From: a virus
Reading direction: 5' to 3' (one strand)
Length of the DNA stretch: 64,000 nt
Virus record (IMG/VR): IMGVR_UViG_3300027798_006580
Shown here piece after piece: positions 14,680 through 62,867 of this stretch. The notes beneath the pieces are model-generated. The model saw only the letters and a program-made list of their open reading frames with translations. It did no database searches and was not told the DNA's origin. Position 1 is the stretch's first letter. Every line of letters begins with the position of its first letter. Both the position numbers and the translations under genes were made by a program.

Positions 14680-15876
14680 ATGGCCACCAAAAAAGCAGTT
14701 AAACAAACAAGCACAGATAAATTGGCATGGCGCTTTGAGCCTCCAGCCAAAACAATCGTTTACCGAGAAGTAGATGTCAAGTATGTTGGCGAGGAGCCCA
14801 CTTACCCCAGCATAGAAGAACAACAAGACTGGACCGATAGTGAGTACAAGACACAGGTCATGCGTACACTTAATTGGTATGCCCACACACAAGACAAAAA
14901 GAAAAGTGCAGAATGGCTAAGCCTATTCCTTGCACGAAATCCACGTCGCCAAAAAGTAGCAGACGCAGTTAAACGCGGCGACATTTGGCCCGGTACCACA
15001 GTTGGCTTTGCGCTAAGAGCAGGTCGTGTTGGATTAGCACTACGATTTGGCACACTACGCACATTGGTCAAACAACTTAAACAAGCAGACAAAGGAGTTG
15101 ATACTTCTTCCCAAGTTGCAGAAGTTGCAGTAGATGACAAGCCAAAGTTTAACATACAAGAACGCATGGCAGAAAAGACGTCAGAGTTCTTGGGAGAACT
15201 AGAAGGTCGCTTTGATGACTTTATTGCAGAGTTCAAAGGCGAACCCAAACTAGTGGAGTTGATGACACAAATGAATGTGCCAGCAGTACAGGTTAAAACT
15301 GTAACAGAGTTTATCAGCAAAAAGATCTCAGAATTTGAAGAAGTTAACAACAGCAAAGATGCACAAGTATTAGAAGCATACAAGCATTTGGGCAAGCGCC
15401 AGATTACTTCCATGGTTAAATGGTGGGCACAGGCATTGTCAGATGCCAACAGTTACAATGTAGTTAAGAAAGCCAGCAAAGCTCCACGTAAAAAGAAAGC
15501 AGTACTGCCGGAAAAGGTAGTGGCTAAATTGAAATACGCAAAAGAATTTAAAGAACTGGCTCTTAAAAGTGCGGACCCAACTACAATTCTTACAGCACAG
15601 GAACTTTGGGTGTACAATACTAAGACACGCAAGTTGGGCATCTACATTGTAGACCAATATGCAGGTGCATTAACAGTTAAGAACAGTTCTATCCTAGGCT
15701 TTGATGCTACAGCAAGTGTGCAGAAAACTCTGCGTAAGCCAAAAGAACAACTTAAAGAGTTTGGTGCCAATGGTAAGCCTGCCGCTAAGAAATGGTTTAA
15801 AGGAATTAAGAGCACAGAGATCAAACTTAACGGACGAATAAGCACAGATGTAATCTTGTTAAAAGTTTATAAATGA
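14680..15876 (+). CDS. Hypothetical protein (398 aa, basic C-terminus)
   Basis: Long ORF, AGGAG RBS, own promoter. Confidence 0.75.
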   Translation: MATKKAVKQTSTDKLAWRFEPPAKTIVYREVDVKYVGEEPTYPSIEEQQDWTDSEYKTQVMRTLNWYAHTQDKKKSAEWLSLFLARNPRRQKVADAVKRGDIWPGTTVGFALRAGRVGLALRFGTLRTLVKQLKQADKGVDTSSQVAEVAVDDKPKFNIQERMAEKTSEFLGELEGRFDDFIAEFKGEPKLVELMTQMNVPAVQVKTVTEFISKKISEFEEVNNSKDAQVLEAYKHLGKRQITSMVKWWAQALSDANSYNVVKKASKAPRKKKAVLPEKVVAKLKYAKEFKELALKSADPTTILTAQELWVYNTKTRKLGIYIVDQYAGALTVKNSSILGFDATASVQKTLRKPKEQLKEFGANGKPAAKKWFKGIKSTEIKLNGRISTDVILLKVYK

Positions 15877-16049
15877 AATATTTAATTTTAATTTTAACAC
15901 TGGCATTAACTGCCTGCGGTGGCGGAGGAAGTGTGGCAACTCAGGCAAATCCTTTTCAGGAAGCACTGGGGAAGTCATTGCCTACTCAACCAGCAACACC
16001 TGCACCAACTGATCCCTTTGCACCTCTACTAAAAAAGAACGGCGGTTAA
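15873..16049 (+). CDS. Small lipoprotein (58 aa, not in ORF track)
   Basis: MKYLILILTLALTA-CGGGG lipobox; ATGA overlap with the upstream stop. Confidence 0.7.
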   Translation: MKYLILILTLALTACGGGGSVATQANPFQEALGKSLPTQPATPAPTDPFAPLLKKNGG

Positions 16050-16050
16050 T

Positions 16051-17439
16051 ATGAAATATATTAATGAATTATTTTTATCGTTGCTGGCATTTTTCTCTCC
16101 TATAGTTTATGCCACAGACACATATAATCATGTAAACAATCAACTAACTATTCCAGCGGTGTTGGTGGGAGAAATAATTTACCGTGATGTTGTTATCACA
16201 GTTGGTCCTATCTTAACTGTAGGCGGCTCTAATTTAGATTCTAAGTATCCTGCAAAACCTGGCAATACAATGGATTCTTATGACCCGTATAAAAATCAAC
16301 TTACGATTCCCAATGTAAGTGCTTATGGGTTTGTTTATTATGATGTTGTAATTAATGTCGGAACTGTACTATCAGTTAAATCCAGCGAACCTAAAAATAA
16401 AGATATTGCTTGTACAGAGCAGTCTTCACTTAATTCTTTAAATGCTGAACCGGTATATAATTTCTCAGGCTTGACAAGCAACTGGTACAACTCTAAAAGT
16501 GTGTTCGGTGCAGACTCTAGTCAAAATTTTGTAATTGCATTTTCCAATTTTTCGTCAGTTGCAAAAGAAAAAAATGATGCGGCTTTAAAATCGACGCTGG
16601 TGTCAAATCTTCATCGCTGGGCGGCAGCAGATGCATTTAAAGGCAGTAAACTATGTTGGAATCCTAGGACAGGGTGGGATTCCACATGCACTCAATGGAT
16701 AGACCCGCAGGGTAATGATTTAAGCGCCATTCAAGATAATAACTTTATAATGGAGATGGTGGAATCTATTAGGCCTTCATATAGCCTTATATCAGATTGG
16801 GCTAAAAAAAATGAGCCAACTAAACATTCCAAAATTATGAGTTGGTTGGATTTTTGGGACGTAAACACACCAGACCCGGACGATGTATTTTTTGGTCTGG
16901 GTATGGGAAGATACCATTGGGAAATAAGGCGTATTACTGACAAATCAGGCGTTGCCGCAACTACACTTCTGGTTCGTAAATTAATGCAAGGTATTTTGCC
17001 GCTGGTCAATGAGGACGGTTCTATCAAAGATAGAACAACTCGTGGAAATAGGGCTATGTGGTATCATTTTACTTCCCTCAATGAAATCATGACATCTATG
17101 TATTTGGCTAAATTGGCGGGCGTTGCAATAGATCCAGTACTGGAAAATAGATTACATAAAGCAGTAGAGATTTTTATTAATACGTTAGACGACCCATCAC
17201 ATATTGTTAAATGGGCAAAAGTTGGACACAATAACGGCGGCGACGGCACTGCACAAAACTTTAATTTTACAAACTGGTATGATGGTGCTTATGCCGGATC
17301 GTGGATCTATTTGTATGTAAATTGGTATCCTTCTAACAATAATACAGCAAGATTGTCGCAAAAGGTTCCGTTGAACTCTGCAAAATCAGCAAGTCAAGAT
17401 AGACAATTTGGTATACCTTTGGGTTGTTTACTTTTTTAA
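16051..17439 (+). CDS. Secreted polysaccharide lyase-like protein (alginate lyase family)
   Basis: Signal peptide (..VYA); duplicated N-terminal NQLTIP..V..Y.DVVI.VG module; DGS...RGNRAMWYHFTSL motif typical of PL5/PL17-type toroid lyases. Confidence 0.6.
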   Translation: MKYINELFLSLLAFFSPIVYATDTYNHVNNQLTIPAVLVGEIIYRDVVITVGPILTVGGSNLDSKYPAKPGNTMDSYDPYKNQLTIPNVSAYGFVYYDVVINVGTVLSVKSSEPKNKDIACTEQSSLNSLNAEPVYNFSGLTSNWYNSKSVFGADSSQNFVIAFSNFSSVAKEKNDAALKSTLVSNLHRWAAADAFKGSKLCWNPRTGWDSTCTQWIDPQGNDLSAIQDNNFIMEMVESIRPSYSLISDWAKKNEPTKHSKIMSWLDFWDVNTPDPDDVFFGLGMGRYHWEIRRITDKSGVAATTLLVRKLMQGILPLVNEDGSIKDRTTRGNRAMWYHFTSLNEIMTSMYLAKLAGVAIDPVLENRLHKAVEIFINTLDDPSHIVKWAKVGHNNGGDGTAQNFNFTNWYDGAYAGSWIYLYVNWYPSNNNTARLSQKVPLNSAKSASQDRQFGIPLGCLLF

Positions 17440-17489: not shown

Positions 17490-18236
17490 ATGAGCGTCAA
17501 AGACGAATTAATTAAAGAGATAGAATTACGCCTAGGTGGCGGCATGGTGGACGTAGAATTGGATTCTGCTCACTACGACTTGGCTATCTCAAAAGCACTA
17601 CGCAAATATCGTCAACGCGGTAGTAGAGCGGTTATCGAGAAGTTCCTTAAATTAAACATTATAAAAGAACAGCAAGAATATCAACTGCCGCAACAAGTAG
17701 TCAATGTTCGTGATGTATTTTTGCGAAACACAGGCTCCATGGGCATCAGTAGTACTGGTGTTGACTTTGAGCCATTCAACACAATGTATTTGAGTAACAT
17801 GTTATTGCAGAGTAACACTAACTTCTCGGGTGTATTAAACTACGAACTATATGCGGATCGAAGGGAACTTTTAGCACGTATGTTCGGAGCATACTGTACC
17901 TTTACATTTAATCCTGGAGATCGCATATTATCCATACATCGTAAGTTTAGAGCAGACGACGAAGTGTATCTTTGGACGTTTGTTGAAAAAGCTGATGACG
18001 AGTTATTAAATGACGTATATTGTGGTCCTTGGATCAAAGACTATGCCATGGCACAGGCCAAGTTTATACTAGGTGAAGCACGTAGTAAGTTTAGTACTAT
18101 TGCAGGCCCACAAGGCGGCACGAGTTTAAATGGCGATAACTTAAAATCAGAAGCAGCCACTGACATGGAAAAGTTAGAAGAAGACTTGAAACTATATGCA
18201 GACGGTAGCGACCCATTGGGATTTATAATTGGATAA
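17490..18236 (+). CDS. Neck protein (T4 gp13-like)
   Basis: LRLGGGMVDVEL start; WIKDYAMA..K..LG....KF....GP.GG.SLNG; ends PLGFIIG. Confidence 0.8.
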   Translation: MSVKDELIKEIELRLGGGMVDVELDSAHYDLAISKALRKYRQRGSRAVIEKFLKLNIIKEQQEYQLPQQVVNVRDVFLRNTGSMGISSTGVDFEPFNTMYLSNMLLQSNTNFSGVLNYELYADRRELLARMFGAYCTFTFNPGDRILSIHRKFRADDEVYLWTFVEKADDELLNDVYCGPWIKDYAMAQAKFILGEARSKFSTIAGPQGGTSLNGDNLKSEAATDMEKLEEDLKLYADGSDPLGFIIG

Positions 18237-18247
18237 GGAATAAAATT

Positions 18248-18694
18248 ATGAGAGTAGATGAAATTTTAACGGAAGAACAATTAAACGAACTTAATTGGCG
18301 TAAGGGTTTGGCCACAGCCGCATTAGGTGCTGCCGCCCTTGGTAGTATGGGCAATGCCAGTGCTAGAGTCATGCCCGGAGATGATCCAAGCATTAATAGA
18401 TTAACTGGCAAACCAAACACAGAACTATCTGTACAATCTGATCGTCCTTCACAGCCCGGCGCAGAAATGCCAAATCAAAATCTTCAAGCAGTCGATCAAG
18501 TTGATCGAACAGATGCTGGTATTACAATTACTCAAGGTGGAAAGACCTATGAAGTTAAAGTAATGTCAAAAGGTGGTCCAACACCACGTGGCGGAAAAAT
18601 GATGAAAGTACATCAAGCGCAAGTGGGAGAACGCGGTATAGGAAATTATGTTGTATATTTAATGCCCAATGGTGCGGCATATCTTTACAAATGA
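18248..18694 (+). CDS. Cassette A: putative virion-packaged protein with internal Sec signal
   Basis: MRVDEILTEEQLNE leader followed by WRKGLATAALGAAALGSMGNASA. Confidence 0.65.
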   Translation: MRVDEILTEEQLNELNWRKGLATAALGAAALGSMGNASARVMPGDDPSINRLTGKPNTELSVQSDRPSQPGAEMPNQNLQAVDQVDRTDAGITITQGGKTYEVKVMSKGGPTPRGGKMMKVHQAQVGERGIGNYVVYLMPNGAAYLYK

Positions 18695-18752
18695 ACGAAG
18701 TAGATAAACTACGTAAACTTGCAGTCGTTGACCCACATTTATAATTGGATAA
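18691..18752 (+). repeat. Chimeric junction 1 (5' end of 21590 gene + 3' end of neck gene)
   Basis: ATGAACGAAGTAGATAAACTACGTAAACTTGC matches 21590-21621; GACCCA and ATTTATAATTGGATAA match the neck gene end (last 16 nt identical to 18221-18236). Confidence 0.85.
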
Positions 18753-18770
18753 AAAAATAATAAATTAAAT

Positions 18771-19688
18771 ATGACACAGCCTTTGCAACTAAATTTAATT
18801 GGGTTAACTTTAGCTCCTGCACAATGTGTATATGATATCGTATTAGAAACTACAGTAAACAATATAGTTTTAAAAGTTATAAATGAAAAATTATTAAATT
18901 CAGATACATTGATATCTGATTATATCACTGCATATCGGCAATGGATAACTAATAGCAGTATTAATAAAATAAATGGACTTGAAAAATTTACTACAGCGGC
19001 ATATTCTAACGGAACATCTGAAGCATTTGACAAGTTTTATTTAAAGCATAGTACGAGAAAATTTCGATGTTTTAGAGGAGAATATCTATATCATAGATTA
19101 TCATGGGAAACAAGATTTGAATGGTCATACTTAGACGCCGCCGAGTTATCTAGTAACGATGCAGTAGTAGTAAGTTTACCTTTTGCAGACACTGGCAATC
19201 AACATCATTTATATAACAGGGAATTTTTAGACAAATGTTATTCTTTAAATATACCAGTTCTGCTTGATTGTGCTTTTTTTGGTATATGCGGTAATTATGA
19301 TTTTGATTTTACTCATCCAGCAATTACTGACATTTGTTTTAGTCTCAGTAAGAGTTTTCCAGTTAACAACTTTAGAATAGGCATTAGATTCACTAAAGTG
19401 AATGATGGTGATAGTTTATTAGTATATCATAATGCAGGATATATCAATAAATTAAGTGCGGCTATTGGATTAGAATTATTAAAAATACAAAATGCAGATT
19501 ATGTGTTTAATAGATACAGAAATCAACAATTAGAATGGTGTAAACAATACGACTTAGAAGCAAGCTCTACAGTTATTTTCGGACTAGATAAAAAAGAATT
19601 ATACAGTAAATATAATAGAGGAATGAAAGGTAATAATAGAATTTGTTTTGCTAAACATTTTAATAATAAACCATTACCTAAGATATGA
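18771..19688 (+). CDS. Cassette B: PLP-dependent fold-type I enzyme
   Basis: NGTSEAF, GEYLYH, VVSLPF, LLDCAF (PLP Asp), FSLSKSF (Schiff-base Lys), RIG. Confidence 0.7.
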   Translation: MTQPLQLNLIGLTLAPAQCVYDIVLETTVNNIVLKVINEKLLNSDTLISDYITAYRQWITNSSINKINGLEKFTTAAYSNGTSEAFDKFYLKHSTRKFRCFRGEYLYHRLSWETRFEWSYLDAAELSSNDAVVVSLPFADTGNQHHLYNREFLDKCYSLNIPVLLDCAFFGICGNYDFDFTHPAITDICFSLSKSFPVNNFRIGIRFTKVNDGDSLLVYHNAGYINKLSAAIGLELLKIQNADYVFNRYRNQQLEWCKQYDLEASSTVIFGLDKKELYSKYNRGMKGNNRICFAKHFNNKPLPKI

Positions 19689-20596
19689 CAAGCATTTATA
19701 AAAATAAAGAAATATATGACAATAAAGGCAATCATATTTATTGGGCAGTCAATGGCTATAAATTTGGAATTTTTGATTATAAACTAGCGTCGTCACAGAA
19801 TTTTATATTTGATTATATGATTCCATTGGACTTGACTTTTTCAGATTATCGAACTGAAGTTAGAAATGCATTAATTAAAATCTATCAAAAATATAAAAAA
19901 ACGTTGGCTATATGTGTTTCGGGCCGTGACAGCGAGATTATTTTAAGAGAAGCAGTCTTCTTAGGTATACCATGTAAGATATATTTTTTAGACTTTTGGG
20001 GAATAAATCGATGGATGAGAGAAGTAGTTGAAGATATATCTAAAGAATTATCAGTGGAATTAATAGTTGTTTCTTTGACAGAACAGCAGTGTATGGAAGA
20101 AGTAATATTTGAATCATATAAAATAATGTCAATTCTTAAACCCACATATCTTTGTATTCCTTATCTCTTTAAACATATTCCTGCAGAAGAATTTATTATT
20201 GCAGGCGAAGGGGATTTAGCAAAAGACAATCCCGTGTATAATAAGTTTATGTCCTCACATATAACAAATGGCATACCAATATTAAGCAGTGAGATAGTTT
20301 ATAGAATATGGGCCCAGGAAAATAAACGATATGGGGAATTTTATTTCCACAGCTCTACTCCTGAACTAATACTAAGTGCATATAATCATCCGTTGGTATA
20401 TAGAAATCCTCCGATGATTTATACCGATAAAATGTACGATCAATATTGGCCTAAATTGAAATTCAAACAAAAAACTGCTAATTTTGAAAATAGTGCAAGT
20501 ACAATAACTTTAATTAAAAAAATTCTATTGAATTTAAAAGTGCAACAAGAAAAAACGGTGGGAACATTTGTTGCACATATAAGCGTGTCTAGATAA
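19685..20596 (+). CDS. Cassette B: PP-loop ATP pyrophosphatase, asparagine-synthetase-like
   Basis: ICVSGRDSE (SGGxDS variant) and IIAGEGD; ATGA-coupled to the PLP enzyme. Confidence 0.55.
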   Translation: MTSIYKNKEIYDNKGNHIYWAVNGYKFGIFDYKLASSQNFIFDYMIPLDLTFSDYRTEVRNALIKIYQKYKKTLAICVSGRDSEIILREAVFLGIPCKIYFLDFWGINRWMREVVEDISKELSVELIVVSLTEQQCMEEVIFESYKIMSILKPTYLCIPYLFKHIPAEEFIIAGEGDLAKDNPVYNKFMSSHITNGIPILSSEIVYRIWAQENKRYGEFYFHSSTPELILSAYNHPLVYRNPPMIYTDKMYDQYWPKLKFKQKTANFENSASTITLIKKILLNLKVQQEKTVGTFVAHISVSR

Positions 20597-20607
20597 GTAC
20601 TTTAATA

Positions 20608-20673
20608 ATGAACGAAGCAGACTTGAAACTATATGCAGACGGCAGTGACCCATTGGGATTTATTATAGGATAA
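20608..20673 (+). repeat. Chimeric junction 2, an in-frame 21-aa mini-ORF MNEADLKLYADGSDPLGFIIG
   Basis: ATGAACGAAGCAGA identical to 21590-21603; 20619-20673 matches 18182-18236 at 51/55 nt. Confidence 0.9.
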
Positions 20674-20677
20674 TATT

Positions 20678-21589
20678 ATGAAAATTAATGAAATTATAGA
20701 AACACAAATAGACGAAATAGATCGTCGAGGTTTTTTACGTGGAATGGGTGCCGCTGGCGCAGCCGCCGCAGTTCCAGGTCTAGCAAAAGCGCAGAGCCAA
20801 ACATCATCACCTGCATACAAGAACGCAATAACAGATATTAAATATTATCTAAAGCCCAAGTTTGATAAATTGCCCAATCCTATGATTCAATATAAAGAAG
20901 GTATCATTATTGTTAAAATGAACGATACTAAAATAACTAGGGTAGAGATGAAAGAGTCTACAGGACTGATAGCACTAGATAATTTAATTATTCGGGTGAT
21001 TACTGCGGAGAGGACATTGCCACAAGTTCAGACATTGGAACGTACCGGTGATCATATAATGGAATTTTCTACAGATAATTTATTACCTGCGCCAGGAGAA
21101 ACACATACACAAACTTCTCAGCCACAGCAAACTTCACAGCCACAGCAAACTTCACAGCCACAGCAAACTTCACAGCCTCAACCACAGCAAGCCCAACAAC
21201 CTACACAACAGTCCCGTGGTTTTACTAGAGTAGGAAACTTTGGAGTGATATCTGGTTATAAATTGGATAATATTAAAGATAAAATTATAGAAAAACTTTT
21301 AATAAAAAATCCAGACGCCGAAGTAGATGATAATGGTCGCACATTGACTGTTAAAATACATAATCCACAAAGTAAGAATTTTGGAATGGCGTTGTATAAA
21401 GGATTATTGGGTCCTAGAGGTAGTACGATGATGGTTGTTATAAAATTTACTTTTAGTGAACGAGATAATCAAATTAGAGTATTACCGCAGTCAAACATAA
21501 TAATAACTAATGCCTTCGGCGGTGTCGATACTCAACCATTTGGTAGTTCATCTGAAATATTAGATGGATTGGAAAAGATATTCAGTTAA
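20678..21589 (+). CDS. Cassette C: putative virion-packaged protein with internal Tat signal, TonB/TolA-C-like domain and Q/P linker
   Basis: MKINEIIETQIDE then IDRRGFLRGMGAAGAAAAVPGLAKA; ITRVEMKESTGLIALDNLIIRVI..E..LP. Confidence 0.6.
   Translation: MKINEIIETQIDEIDRRGFLRGMGAAGAAAAVPGLAKAQSQTSSPAYKNAITDIKYYLKPKFDKLPNPMIQYKEGIIIVKMNDTKITRVEMKESTGLIALDNLIIRVITAERTLPQVQTLERTGDHIMEFSTDNLLPAPGETHTQTSQPQQTSQPQQTSQPQQTSQPQPQQAQQPTQQSRGFTRVGNFGVISGYKLDNIKDKIIEKLLIKNPDAEVDDNGRTLTVKIHNPQSKNFGMALYKGLLGPRGSTMMVVIKFTFSERDNQIRVLPQSNIIITNAFGGVDTQPFGSSSEILDGLEKIFS
21110..21181 (+). repeat. Coding 18-bp tandem repeat (QTSQPQ x4)
   Basis: CAAACTTCACAGCCACAG unit, four copies with minor variation. Confidence 0.9.
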
Positions 21590-21784
21590 ATGAACGAAGC
21601 AGATAAACTCAGAAAACTTGCCGGCATTGATAAAAATGCCCCTAGTCCTATTACCGGAGAGATTGGCACAGACAAAGGCGAGTACATGCGAAAGAATAAC
21701 ATTCGTCCGGGCACAGACGAATGGTTTAAGTTATGGTTTGCCAGACCAAAATTAACTGGCGAAAATCCCACTCCTAAAAAGTAA
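21590..21784 (+). CDS. Small hypothetical protein (right anchor of the cassette slot)
   Basis: 64 aa, MNEADKLRKLAGI...IRPGTDEWFKLWF. Confidence 0.7.
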   Translation: MNEADKLRKLAGIDKNAPSPITGEIGTDKGEYMRKNNIRPGTDEWFKLWFARPKLTGENPTPKK

Positions 21785-21826
21785 AATACCGTTGACAAGT
21801 AGATTTGTTTGCTATATAATATTAGT

Positions 21827-22941: not shown

Positions 22942-23009
22942 TTTTCGCTAAATAGCCTGGTTTCTCCGAAATAGTATAAATATGTATAACCTATAGAGGA
23001 GAAAAACAA

Positions 23010-28883: not shown

Positions 28884-30122
28884 ATGAACAGTTTACAAGA
28901 TTTAATGAAACGATTAAGCAGTATTGGCCAAGTCACTGAAGCAGAAGAAAAATGCTCCGAATGTGGTTGTACTCCGTGTGAGTGTGATGACAAAGACAAA
29001 GTCGACGAAGCCAAAAAGCCAGACGCTGACAAAGATGGTATTCCTGATTGGGCTGACAAAGATGAAGAAAAAGTCGACGAAGGCGCATTAGATACATTAA
29101 AGAAATTCGGCAAAAAAGCATTAGACACATTAGGACATCCTGACGACGAAGAAATGATCAAAGATTTACAAAGAAAAGTCGGCGTGCCACAGACGGGTAA
29201 AAAACCTGGCGAAGAAGAAAAATCGATGAAGGAAAGTGCTTTAAATTTATTACGTAGATATGCTGGCATTGCAGAAAACAACAACGAAGCAACAGTCGAT
29301 GAAGCACTTAACACTAGCAAGTTAGCAGACACTATGGGTGTAGATGTACAGCAGTTACGCATGGCTGTTAGTCGCGCCAGTACTGGCAAACAAACACGCA
29401 GTGATATAATGTTGTTATCAGATACTTTTGTCAAACTATTAAACAATCCAGATGACACAGTTATTCAAACTGTTGCCAACTTAATTAAGTCTGGTAATAC
29501 TGCACCAGCCCCAGAAGCTAATATGAAACAAGAAGGCAATGAATTCAGCGGCGCATTAAAAGCAGCCAAAGATGCCGGCGAAGAAGAATTTGAAGTTGGT
29601 GGCAAAAAATATAAAGTAAACGAATGTAATGACATGAGTCCACTGACATCAGTACCCAACGGTGAATCACACATGGGTATTCCAGCTGAAATAATGGCAC
29701 GTATGTCTAGTCCAGAAATGACAGAACCAAAAGGTCCGCACATGGAAGTTCCTATGGCAGCAGAAGAACCAAACGCAACCTATACATTAAGTATTCAAAA
29801 TGGTGAAAACAATTTAAGTATGACAACTGACATGCCTGATGAAATTATTCACATCATGAAGTTAGCGGGTGTTAACAAGGGCGCCGAAGTAACCAAGACA
29901 GCGGCAGCAGGCGAACAAGAAGTAGAAGAATCAGGTTATGAAAATACTCCTGACAATACGCGAGCACGTGATCCGCAGGCACATGGTGACATTCGCGACT
30001 GGGGACAAAAAGGCACAGGCGCAGGCAAACCAAACTATCCTGGTACAGGCGCCAGCGGTGATAACCCAATGAACGAACAACGTATGTTCCAGGACTACAA
30101 AAACTTTAAAGCAGGCAAATGA
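28884..30122 (+). CDS. Putative head/inner-core protein
   Basis: Acidic, low complexity, many (V/I/M)xE sites; CSECGCTPCEC and DADKDG motifs. Confidence 0.5.
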   Translation: MNSLQDLMKRLSSIGQVTEAEEKCSECGCTPCECDDKDKVDEAKKPDADKDGIPDWADKDEEKVDEGALDTLKKFGKKALDTLGHPDDEEMIKDLQRKVGVPQTGKKPGEEEKSMKESALNLLRRYAGIAENNNEATVDEALNTSKLADTMGVDVQQLRMAVSRASTGKQTRSDIMLLSDTFVKLLNNPDDTVIQTVANLIKSGNTAPAPEANMKQEGNEFSGALKAAKDAGEEEFEVGGKKYKVNECNDMSPLTSVPNGESHMGIPAEIMARMSSPEMTEPKGPHMEVPMAAEEPNATYTLSIQNGENNLSMTTDMPDEIIHIMKLAGVNKGAEVTKTAAAGEQEVEESGYENTPDNTRARDPQAHGDIRDWGQKGTGAGKPNYPGTGASGDNPMNEQRMFQDYKNFKAGK

Positions 30123-61802: not shown

Positions 61803-62399
61803 ATGACAGTAATGCCTCAACTTGGTGATGTAGACGTCTTTGATAGTATAGATTTAGATGATCTTTGGTGTGTGGACAAATTAATCTTATCAAAAAAATT
61901 AGGTTATACATGCGGCCTTGCAGGGATACCGCCAACAACTCCCGGTGAGTACATAGTGCGTCCCATTATAAATCTAAAATCCATGAGTGCTGGCGCTTCA
62001 ATACAGTATCTGGACTCTGATACTATTCCAAATGGTTATTTCTGGTGCGAGATATTTACTGGACGTCATTTAAGTTTTGATTACCACTGGGGCAAACAGA
62101 CATTAGCAGTGGAGGGATTTAGAGATGATCCTTCACGTTTAGATAGGTTTAGTCACTGGACGAAAATTGACGATATATTTATATTGCCTGAGATACTGCA
62201 AACTGTTGCGGATAGATACGAATGGTTTAATGTAGAAGTGATAGGCCATCGAGTTATTGAAGTACATTTTAGATACAATGATGACTTTTCCAATCACAAT
62301 GCCAATACTATTATACCGGTTTGGCGTGACGAATTTTACTCTAGTCCAGACGGAGATAGACTAGGATTTGTATTAAAAACAGTTGACACTAATGTTTAA
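61803..62399 (+). CDS. Hypothetical protein (possibly degenerate ATP-grasp)
   Basis: DKL, IVRP, WCEIFTG, NVE.IG...IEVHFR pattern. Confidence 0.4.
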   Translation: MTVMPQLGDVDVFDSIDLDDLWCVDKLILSKKLGYTCGLAGIPPTTPGEYIVRPIINLKSMSAGASIQYLDSDTIPNGYFWCEIFTGRHLSFDYHWGKQTLAVEGFRDDPSRLDRFSHWTKIDDIFILPEILQTVADRYEWFNVEVIGHRVIEVHFRYNDDFSNHNANTIIPVWRDEFYSSPDGDRLGFVLKTVDTNV

Positions 62400-62411
62400 A
62401 GACAGTATAAT
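62383..62411 (+). promoter_or_regulatory. sigma70-type promoter
   Basis: TTGACA-17-TATAAT. Confidence 0.75.
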
Positions 62412-62438
62412 TAATACTTTTAACATTTAAGGACTGTT

Positions 62439-62867
62439 ATGTTTAGTGTACTCAAATTCTTTTGGTTGGTGTCCCGCTCGTCTTGGAACATCATGAATCC
62501 CAATCTAAATCCTCTGCGCCATGCGCCTGTATATATCAAATACTTTCTCAGCATCTTGCTGGGATGTTTCTGGAGTCTGGCATTTGGCCTGTACATTGGT
62601 GAACTGCTGACAATTGGCTACAACATGATTGGACACATTGCCATCATCAGCATGGTGTTTGCTACCGCGGCTGTGTTTCGTTCAGTGGAAAACACCTACA
62701 AGCCACGCACAGGCGTCAACTGGTTGCGAGCCCCAGACTATAGTAGTCGTTGTGACGAATTGACTGAACAAGAACGTCTTGCTAAAGTACAAGAATGGAA
62801 TCGTCGCAATGTGTGGAATGATCCTAAACTGTCTGAAAAAGATAAAGACATCTATTACGGAGCATAA
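62439..62867 (+). CDS. Membrane protein (2 TM)
   Basis: IMNP..NPLRH.P then two hydrophobic helices; AAGGA RBS. Confidence 0.65.
   Translation: MFSVLKFFWLVSRSSWNIMNPNLNPLRHAPVYIKYFLSILLGCFWSLAFGLYIGELLTIGYNMIGHIAIISMVFATAAVFRSVENTYKPRTGVNWLRAPDYSSRCDELTEQERLAKVQEWNRRNVWNDPKLSEKDKDIYYGA

Follow-up and report, generated by a model that had tools for sequence, protein, structure and literature searches.

In phage T4, the internal proteins known as IPI, IPII and IPIII and the protein Alt carry a capsid-targeting sequence that is removed by the prohead protease gp21. This sequence, MKTYQEFIAE (PMC8442874), depends on residues 4 and 7 for targeting and on residues 8 and 10 for processing (PMC9026906). 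Here, we describe a locus with a related layout in IMG/VR virus record IMGVR_UViG_3300027798_006580. The whole stretch analyzed, 64 kb of DNA referred to below as the window, is a piece of an uncultured jumbo myophage genome. Two of its proteins, A (positions 18248-18694, 148 amino acids) and C (positions 20678-21589, 303 amino acids), begin with similar acidic leaders, each followed directly by a segment that resembles an export signal. It is possible, with a likelihood that we put somewhat short of even, that both proteins follow a full route of packaging, cutting, injection and re-export in this phage, a relative of Pseudomonas phage PA5oct.

The locus shares several features with the T4 internal proteins. 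A short, similar N-terminal tag ending in hydrophobic-x-Glu is common to unrelated cargo, the cargo locus is hypervariable, the lineage has a protease of the S77 family, and expression is probably late, among structural genes. T4 cargo is soluble, basic and cytoplasmic, whereas the cargo here is predicted to carry a signal for twin-arginine translocation (Tat) or general secretion (Sec) and to be envelope-directed. Also unlike T4, the leader of A and C has two tandem cut sites, and relatives string many modules into polyproteins. Two further groups invite comparison. One comprises the polyvalent proteins that phages and conjugative elements encode (Iyer et al. 2017, cited in PMC7824862), the other the ejection proteins of phiKZ and SPN3US, which undergo processing (PMC5694885). 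These proteins are likewise large and multi-module in the manner of the relatives, their delivery together with the DNA is presumed, and a gp21-related protease cleaves them after Glu, frequently at several sites that are redundant. In contrast to them, A and C are single-cargo proteins, and the modules of this system are small, with a fixed linker of the G-V-A-E type. Internal export signals are not described in PMC7824862 and PMC5694885, and the former, a jumbo-phage survey, makes no mention of a tag-plus-signal layout. A literature search found no paper in which a natural signal peptide is paired with a capsid-targeting sequence, or Tat with ejection proteins.

Proteins A and C consist of the following parts.

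18248..18289, plus strand: acidic leader of protein A, residues 1-14, with sites L-T-E (E9) and L-N-E (E14)
18290..18364, plus strand: signal-like segment of protein A, residues 15-39, with W-R-K, an Ala/Gly-rich core and A-S-A before R40
18365..18694, plus strand: mature part of protein A, comprising a conserved stretch, a linker and a small beta domain
20678..20716, plus strand: leader of protein C, residues 1-13, with sites I-I-E (E8) and I-D-E (E13); kept in P0001-P0007 and P0011
20717..20791, plus strand: predicted twin-arginine signal peptide of protein C, residues 14-38, matching PF10518, with A-K-A before Q39
20792..21589, plus strand: mature part of protein C, comprising a TolA/TonB C-terminal-like domain, a linker of Q/T/S/P repeats and, at the C-terminus, a helix-grip-like domain

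The initial annotation had drawn attention to similar acidic leaders on the two proteins. Both open reading frames (ORFs) are present, and their leaders, MRVDEILTEEQLNE in A and MKINEIIETQIDE in C, are 13-14 residues long, share the start pattern M-[RK]-x-[DN]-E-I-[LI]-x-E and contain two hydrophobic-x-Glu sites each. A Shine-Dalgarno-like AGGA lies 8-12 nt upstream of both genes. Neither gene offers an in-frame ATG, GTG or TTG after codon 1 and ahead of the signal. Thus, the leader cannot be skipped by alternative initiation, and start codons that bypass it were rejected as an explanation.

The textbook twin-arginine signal that had been reported directly after the leader of C is borne out: D-R-R-G-F-L-R is followed by an Ala-rich core and A-K-A, and residues 13-33 match the Pfam family TAT_signal (PF10518) with 26 bits against a curated cut-off of 22.7. 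In its R-R-x-F-L motif, weakly hydrophobic Ala-rich core and A-x-A, the segment is like bacterial Tat signals. Unlike them, it stands behind a conserved acidic leader that contains protease-type sites, and in relatives such signals lie hundreds of residues from the N-terminus, sometimes two per protein. In A, residues 20-35 form a 16-residue Ala/Gly-rich core (mean Kyte-Doolittle value 1.43), with A-S-A at residues 37-39. The n-region of A has a net charge of -1 with the leader in place, not the positive charge of a Sec-type signal, and would reach +3 only after a cut at E14. The earlier assignment of A to the Sec type holds for its Sec-like features and A-S-A; as a label it is too simple, because orthologs carry a twin-arginine version.

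The two-part N-terminus is conserved, as a survey of homologs proposed at the outset makes clear. The leader is kept in 80 A-type and 10 C-type metagenomic homologs. Across 20 diverse members of the A family, M1, E5, E9, L12 and E14 are invariant, and the cargo drifts to 37-50% identity. Six A-type orthologs have D-R-R-G-F-L-R-G in place of N-W-R-K-G-L-A-T; the signal thus interconverts between a Sec-like and a Tat form. In the C family (10 homologs), leader and signal are kept and the cargo domains are swapped; D15 through L20 and G22 are nearly invariant. A hydrophobic-x-Glu site precedes the signal in every short-leader homolog (99/99). In the same 99 proteins, without exception, the net charge of the n-region would rise on cutting at the last such site, from a mean of -0.39 to +2.96. 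This shift fits the masking of a Sec-type signal; it is less compelling for Tat, for which long n-regions occur naturally. Other cargo types stand behind the same N-terminus in P0085, P0094, P0108, P0118 and P0126, and a word-based protein search added three more (P0160, P0161 and P0162), P0161 having a lipobox cysteine. When IMG/VR was scanned with a profile of the 40-residue N-terminus, only loci that were already known came back.

What indicates that the leader is cut from the signal? A HMMER search with residues 1-58 of A found 73 representative proteins, and in most of these the signal module is internal to a protein of 200-1648 amino acids. [LVIM]-x-E stands directly before W-[KR] in 126 of the 126 module copies (L in 95, V in 15, I in 10 and M in 6), and the sequence further upstream is unrelated. 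One such protein is P0099 (719 amino acids), in which a Tat-like signal (21.4 bits) lies at residue 78 and a Sec-like one at residue 465; it contains six G-V-A-E joints, and no hydrophobic stretch besides its two signals. Two inside-to-outside segments in one protein are topologically impossible unless the chain is cut. The G-V-A-E joint occurs 58 times in the 32,106 residues of module-bearing proteins; the reversed motif does not occur in them. Scanning IMG/VR at the DNA level for the pattern E-I-D-R-R-G-F-L-x-G turned up 33 loci, ~24 of them internal to ORFs of up to 1104 amino acids and most directly behind G-V-A-E-G-S-L-E. The h- and c-regions at these loci vary and remain signal-like, with several exceeding the Pfam Tat cut-off. 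In L053 (10700-13099, minus strand), one ORF of ~1100 amino acids has two Tat-type signals, separated by ~680 residues that include G-V-A-E joints. A T4-like leader opens most of these polyproteins. Pfam found nothing besides the signals in eight large module-bearing proteins.

Buried and sometimes paired signals need endoproteolysis after Glu if they are to work. Cleavage at the junction of leader and signal has good comparative support, and is the best-supported step of the proposed route. A and C are the minimal, single-cargo version of the polyprotein design. A plain bitopic membrane anchor was considered as an alternative role for the hydrophobic segment. It was rejected wherever one protein has two signals that point the same way; for the single-module relatives it is possible.

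A complete IMG/VR genome of 346,856 bp with terminal repeats (G001) was used as a stand-in for the window phage. Its 229-300 kb region is syntenic with the window, at protein identities of 40-55%. The window itself encodes the neck adaptor, tail sheath, tail tube, head-closure protein, large terminase, UvsX, UvsY and a helicase, and the head module lies outside it. The closest cultured phage is PA5oct, with a large terminase of 52.5% identity.

The leaders of relatives, such as MRAYEFLKEE in A orthologs and MRAQEFIKE in G001, resemble the T4 capsid-targeting sequence by eye and by pattern rather than by a scored profile. Six unrelated ORFs of G001 start with M-R-x-x-E-F-[LIV]-x-E, all on the coding strand, where ~0.005 would be expected; reverse and control scans of G001 found no such start. 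All six lack a signal; the leader thus has some function other than in export. Some of them encode small, very basic proteins like the T4 internal proteins. G001 also has a Peptidase_S77 prohead protease (87 bits) in a T4-like block with the portal gene, two small core-like genes, and the scaffold and major capsid protein genes. A small ORF after the portal gene has a leader-like start, M-I-L-N-E-L-Y. A head maturation protease is annotated in PA5oct as well. The links between leader and capsid, among them a copying of capsid protein sequence, are circumstantial but consistent.

The copying concerns small leader proteins of the kind encoded at 6382-6582 of L006, in which the stretch after the leader copies a stretch of the major capsid protein that follows L-K-E42. 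The major capsid protein of G001 corresponds to L026 6174-7367. The copied stretch belongs to the N-arm region and aligns to residues 9-27 of mature T4 gp23, the mature N-terminus of which maps ~8 residues upstream of the L-K-E42 point. A Dps/ferritin-like gene lies within the leader-gene cluster (L006 6572-7012, equivalent to G001 62220-62660), and the same arrangement is found in L010.

The cargo behind the signals is predicted to be envelope-directed, with the TolA/TonB-like domain of C, a LysM-SLT enzyme and the lipobox variant P0161 as examples. The mature part of A has a conserved, proline-rich stretch in its alignment, R-V-x-P-G-D-D-P-x-I-N-R-L-T-G-K-P, and a small beta domain (residues 80-148) modeled by AlphaFold2 with a predicted local distance difference test score (pLDDT) of 82-89; this domain had no structural match, the best reaching only Z 3.5. 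The AlphaFold2 model of C has a mean pLDDT of 68, with domain blocks mostly at 72-90. Its first domain (residues ~41-141, searched as 35-142) matches TolA domain III (4g7x_B; Z 8.0, 91 residues aligned). Other full-length matches, all within a range of Z 6.4-8.0, are 6s3w (Z 7.8), the TonB C-terminal domain 5lw8 (Z 7.5) and 1s62 (Z 6.8), and the top Foldseek match of C is again TolA domain III (1lr0, E 2.7e-3). Pfam found no TolA/TonB domain in C. The second domain (residues 178-303, of which 185-303 were matched) has a helix-grip fold like BamC and KA1 (Z 8.2-8.7). The LysM-SLT enzyme is a 299-amino-acid protein (L041 5439-6335) with the leader M-K-I-T-E, a Tat signal of 29.6 bits, a LysM domain and an SLT lytic transglycosylase domain; it is found unchanged on four IMG/VR contigs. 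Cargo activities of this kind are periplasmic, which argues that the signals are real.

The predicted fold of C suggests that it interferes with, or mimics, the periplasmic Tol/TonB hub. The g3p protein of filamentous phages binds TolA domain III. C would join the phage proteins that make use of host TolA or TonB, in that its first cargo domain is predicted to have the TolA/TonB C-terminal fold. Unlike g3p, it would mimic the host domain rather than bind it in the known way, and no sequence relation was found.

These elements suggest the following route. The leader would act as a T4-like capsid-targeting propeptide that takes A and C into the prohead core. The second part would be an export signal (Tat in C, and Sec-like or decayed Tat in A), and the third would be the envelope-directed cargo. 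A T4-type (S77) prohead protease would then cut after E14 in A and after E13 in C, stripping off the acidic leader and leaving the positively charged N-terminus of a normal signal peptide. The proteins would be ejected with the DNA into the cytoplasm of the next host, where the host Tat or Sec machinery would export them and signal peptidase would cut after A-x-A. The cargo could then act in the periplasm before any phage gene expression, with the Tol or TonB system as the likely target of C. That a cut in the head unmasks the signal, and that injected protein is then exported, had already been suggested in the initial annotation. The T4-like tag and cut motif, the S77 protease of a relative, the buried signals and the charge shift speak for the unmasking; the rest we infer. 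Specifically, the prohead protease as the cutter, and hence packaging, would follow from motif likeness, the T4-like tags and the protease gene of the relative. If the cut is made only inside proheads, the signal would meet a translocon only after ejection, and re-export would follow logically.

Several points weigh against this route. First, tblastn with A and C against 50,697 GenBank phage records gave no match, so no cultured phage among them offers a homolog. In PA5oct, the strict leader motif was not found, and the kinase and sheath genes come directly after the neck gene, leaving the corresponding slot empty. For both of these reasons, the PA5oct proteome is no test of A and C. Second, the S77 protease is seen in G001 and annotated in PA5oct, not within the window. 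Third, G-V-A-E is absent from the capsid and head genes of G001, so that a direct tie of this joint to the prohead protease failed. Fourth, a Glu-specific cut by another, cytoplasmic protease would unmask the signals equally well. Fifth, natural Tat signals tolerate n-regions of at least 15 residues, so that the producing cell could export C while the leader is still attached. Sixth, an ejected protein would need to engage Tat, which takes folded substrates. Seventh, the Z scores are middling for the structural matches of the C cargo.

Export within the producing cell is the main rival to the injection route, although we consider it rather unlikely. A and C would then be ordinary late proteins that are exported by Tat or Sec and act where they are made, for instance in superinfection exclusion, lysis control or envelope remodeling. 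The acidic leader would be a long n-region or a feature of translation or regulation, and a cytoplasmic protease would free the pieces of the polyproteins. The twin arginines of C, at residues 16-17, are within the natural Tat range, for which the TorA- and HyaA-type signals are the reference. The cargo is envelope-directed under this explanation too, the LysM-SLT enzyme, with a Tat signal and a leader of only 5 residues, could be a secreted lysis enzyme, and the lack of homologs among cultured phages agrees with it. However, export from the producing cell leaves unexplained why at least six signal-less, partly very basic proteins have the same leader, why E5, E9, L12 and E14 never change, why each signal copy comes directly after [LVIM]-x-E, and why polyproteins start with T4-like tags. 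A net negative n-region is also unfavorable for a Sec signal such as that of A.

A second alternative accepts packaging and cutting and gives the hydrophobic segment a role apart from Sec and Tat. The segment could anchor core proteins to the membrane-bound prohead initiation complex, or, once ejected, could insert unaided into the inner membrane and serve DNA entry there as a channel or an anchor, in the manner of the T7 or P22 ejection proteins. The Ala/Gly-rich core, with its glycine-zipper-like spacing and modest hydrophobicity, would suit such a role, as would the stretch after A-x-A, which is conserved beyond the need of a signal cleavage region. Nonetheless, we consider this alternative improbable. 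The twin-arginine consensus exceeds the Pfam cut-off in C and in many relatives, a lipobox variant exists, the h- and c-regions vary freely with signal-peptide features kept, and enzymes that act in the periplasm stand behind the signal.

What are the implications of the injection route, if it is true? First, it would be a new way of delivering proteins from virion to periplasm, in which ready-made proteins are exported by the machinery of the new host. The phage proteins known to be injected work in the cytoplasm or build the conduit for DNA; through this route, the earliest phase of infection would gain a new compartment. Second, it would be a natural case of a protease-gated export signal. 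Third, the phage could use it for immediate superinfection exclusion, for a block of Tol- or TonB-dependent uptake, or for local remodeling of the cell wall. Fourth, the tag-plus-signal module could serve as a tool for phage delivery of proteins to the periplasm. A broader reading, which we offer tentatively, is that a whole clade of jumbo phages, freshwater and marine, fills its capsids in advance with envelope effectors whose signals stay silent until the prohead protease cuts, and which are exported within seconds of infection. The effectors would include a TolA/TonB mimic, peptidoglycan enzymes and lipoproteins.

The genes for A and C lie between the neck and sheath genes, without a promoter of their own, in a slot that has the following further features.

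17490..18236, plus strand: neck / head-tail adaptor (Ad2) gene (phrog_211, E 6e-32), the last 60 nt of which are the left flank of the slot
18689..18752, plus strand: junction scar, with a truncated start of gene D (18689-18731) and then a 16-nt copy of the neck end (18737-18752)
18771..20596, plus strand: AT-rich insert of two genes, B1 and B2 (GC fraction 0.33), without leader or signal
20614..20673, plus strand: second copy of the neck-gene 3' end, flanking cassette C on the left, 92% identical to 18177-18236
21590..21784, plus strand: gene D, small and conserved, the right flank of the slot; found after A in L001 and L002 and after a C-type gene in L036 and L037
21792..21820, plus strand: perfect sigma-70-type promoter (12/12 consensus matches), upstream of the NT5C and deoxynucleoside monophosphate kinase genes

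The slot from neck to gene D holds an A-type gene in L001 and L002 and a C-type gene in L036 and L037. One slot with either gene across contigs indicates that A and C are alternative alleles of a single hyperplastic slot behind the neck gene. In the window, both alleles are stacked, with the B1/B2 insert between them. B1 and B2 are not part of the leader-signal system. The promoter at 21792-21820 (TTGACA-17-TATAAT) ends the unit from neck to D, so the genes from A to D most likely lie on the late neck transcript; A and C are probably transcribed together with the late structural genes. The sequence TATAAATA is found at 22975, upstream of the sheath gene.

The slot also bears on the origin of the leaders. 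At the DNA level, the A and C leaders are 79% alike over 29 nt, and the first 21 nt of both genes adjoin the duplicated 60-nt neck end, so their likeness within the window partly reflects shared cassette flanks. An explanation that makes the leader a functionless by-product of recombination, with the neck end and the first cassette codons as a homology arm for allele exchange, could appeal to these side-by-side duplications, to the allelism of A and C and to the twin-arginine/W-R-K mosaics within the A family, but it is very unlikely, since the leader protein sequence varies with its pattern kept, the alignments speak against silent-site conservation limited to the flank and free of constraint on the protein, and leaders of the same type stand at many other positions and in distant contigs without the neck flank.

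The remaining observations concern neighboring genes. Pfam and PHROGs assigned no family to A, B1, B2 or D. The B1/B2 pair is flanked by junction scars of the cassette slot, and B2 has an S-G-R-D-S stretch reminiscent of PP-loop ATP pyrophosphatases. The NT5C/kinase unit is of an early type, wedged among late structural genes. Gene D always lies 3' of the cassette slot, and in a distant contig a D-like gene (L013 10531-10749) likewise stands behind a gene that bears the module. The N-terminal K-L-A-G motif of gene D recurs at the C-terminal ends of P0086-P0088 and P0099 and inside a window ORF at 28884-30122. The product of gene D may be a partner of the signal-bearing cargo. Finally, among the virion genes at 15873-17439 of the window are those for a 58-amino-acid lipoprotein (lipobox L-T-A-C) and a 462-amino-acid signal-bearing protein with a weak alginate-lyase match (E 4e-4), both of which are conserved in L001, L002 and L037.

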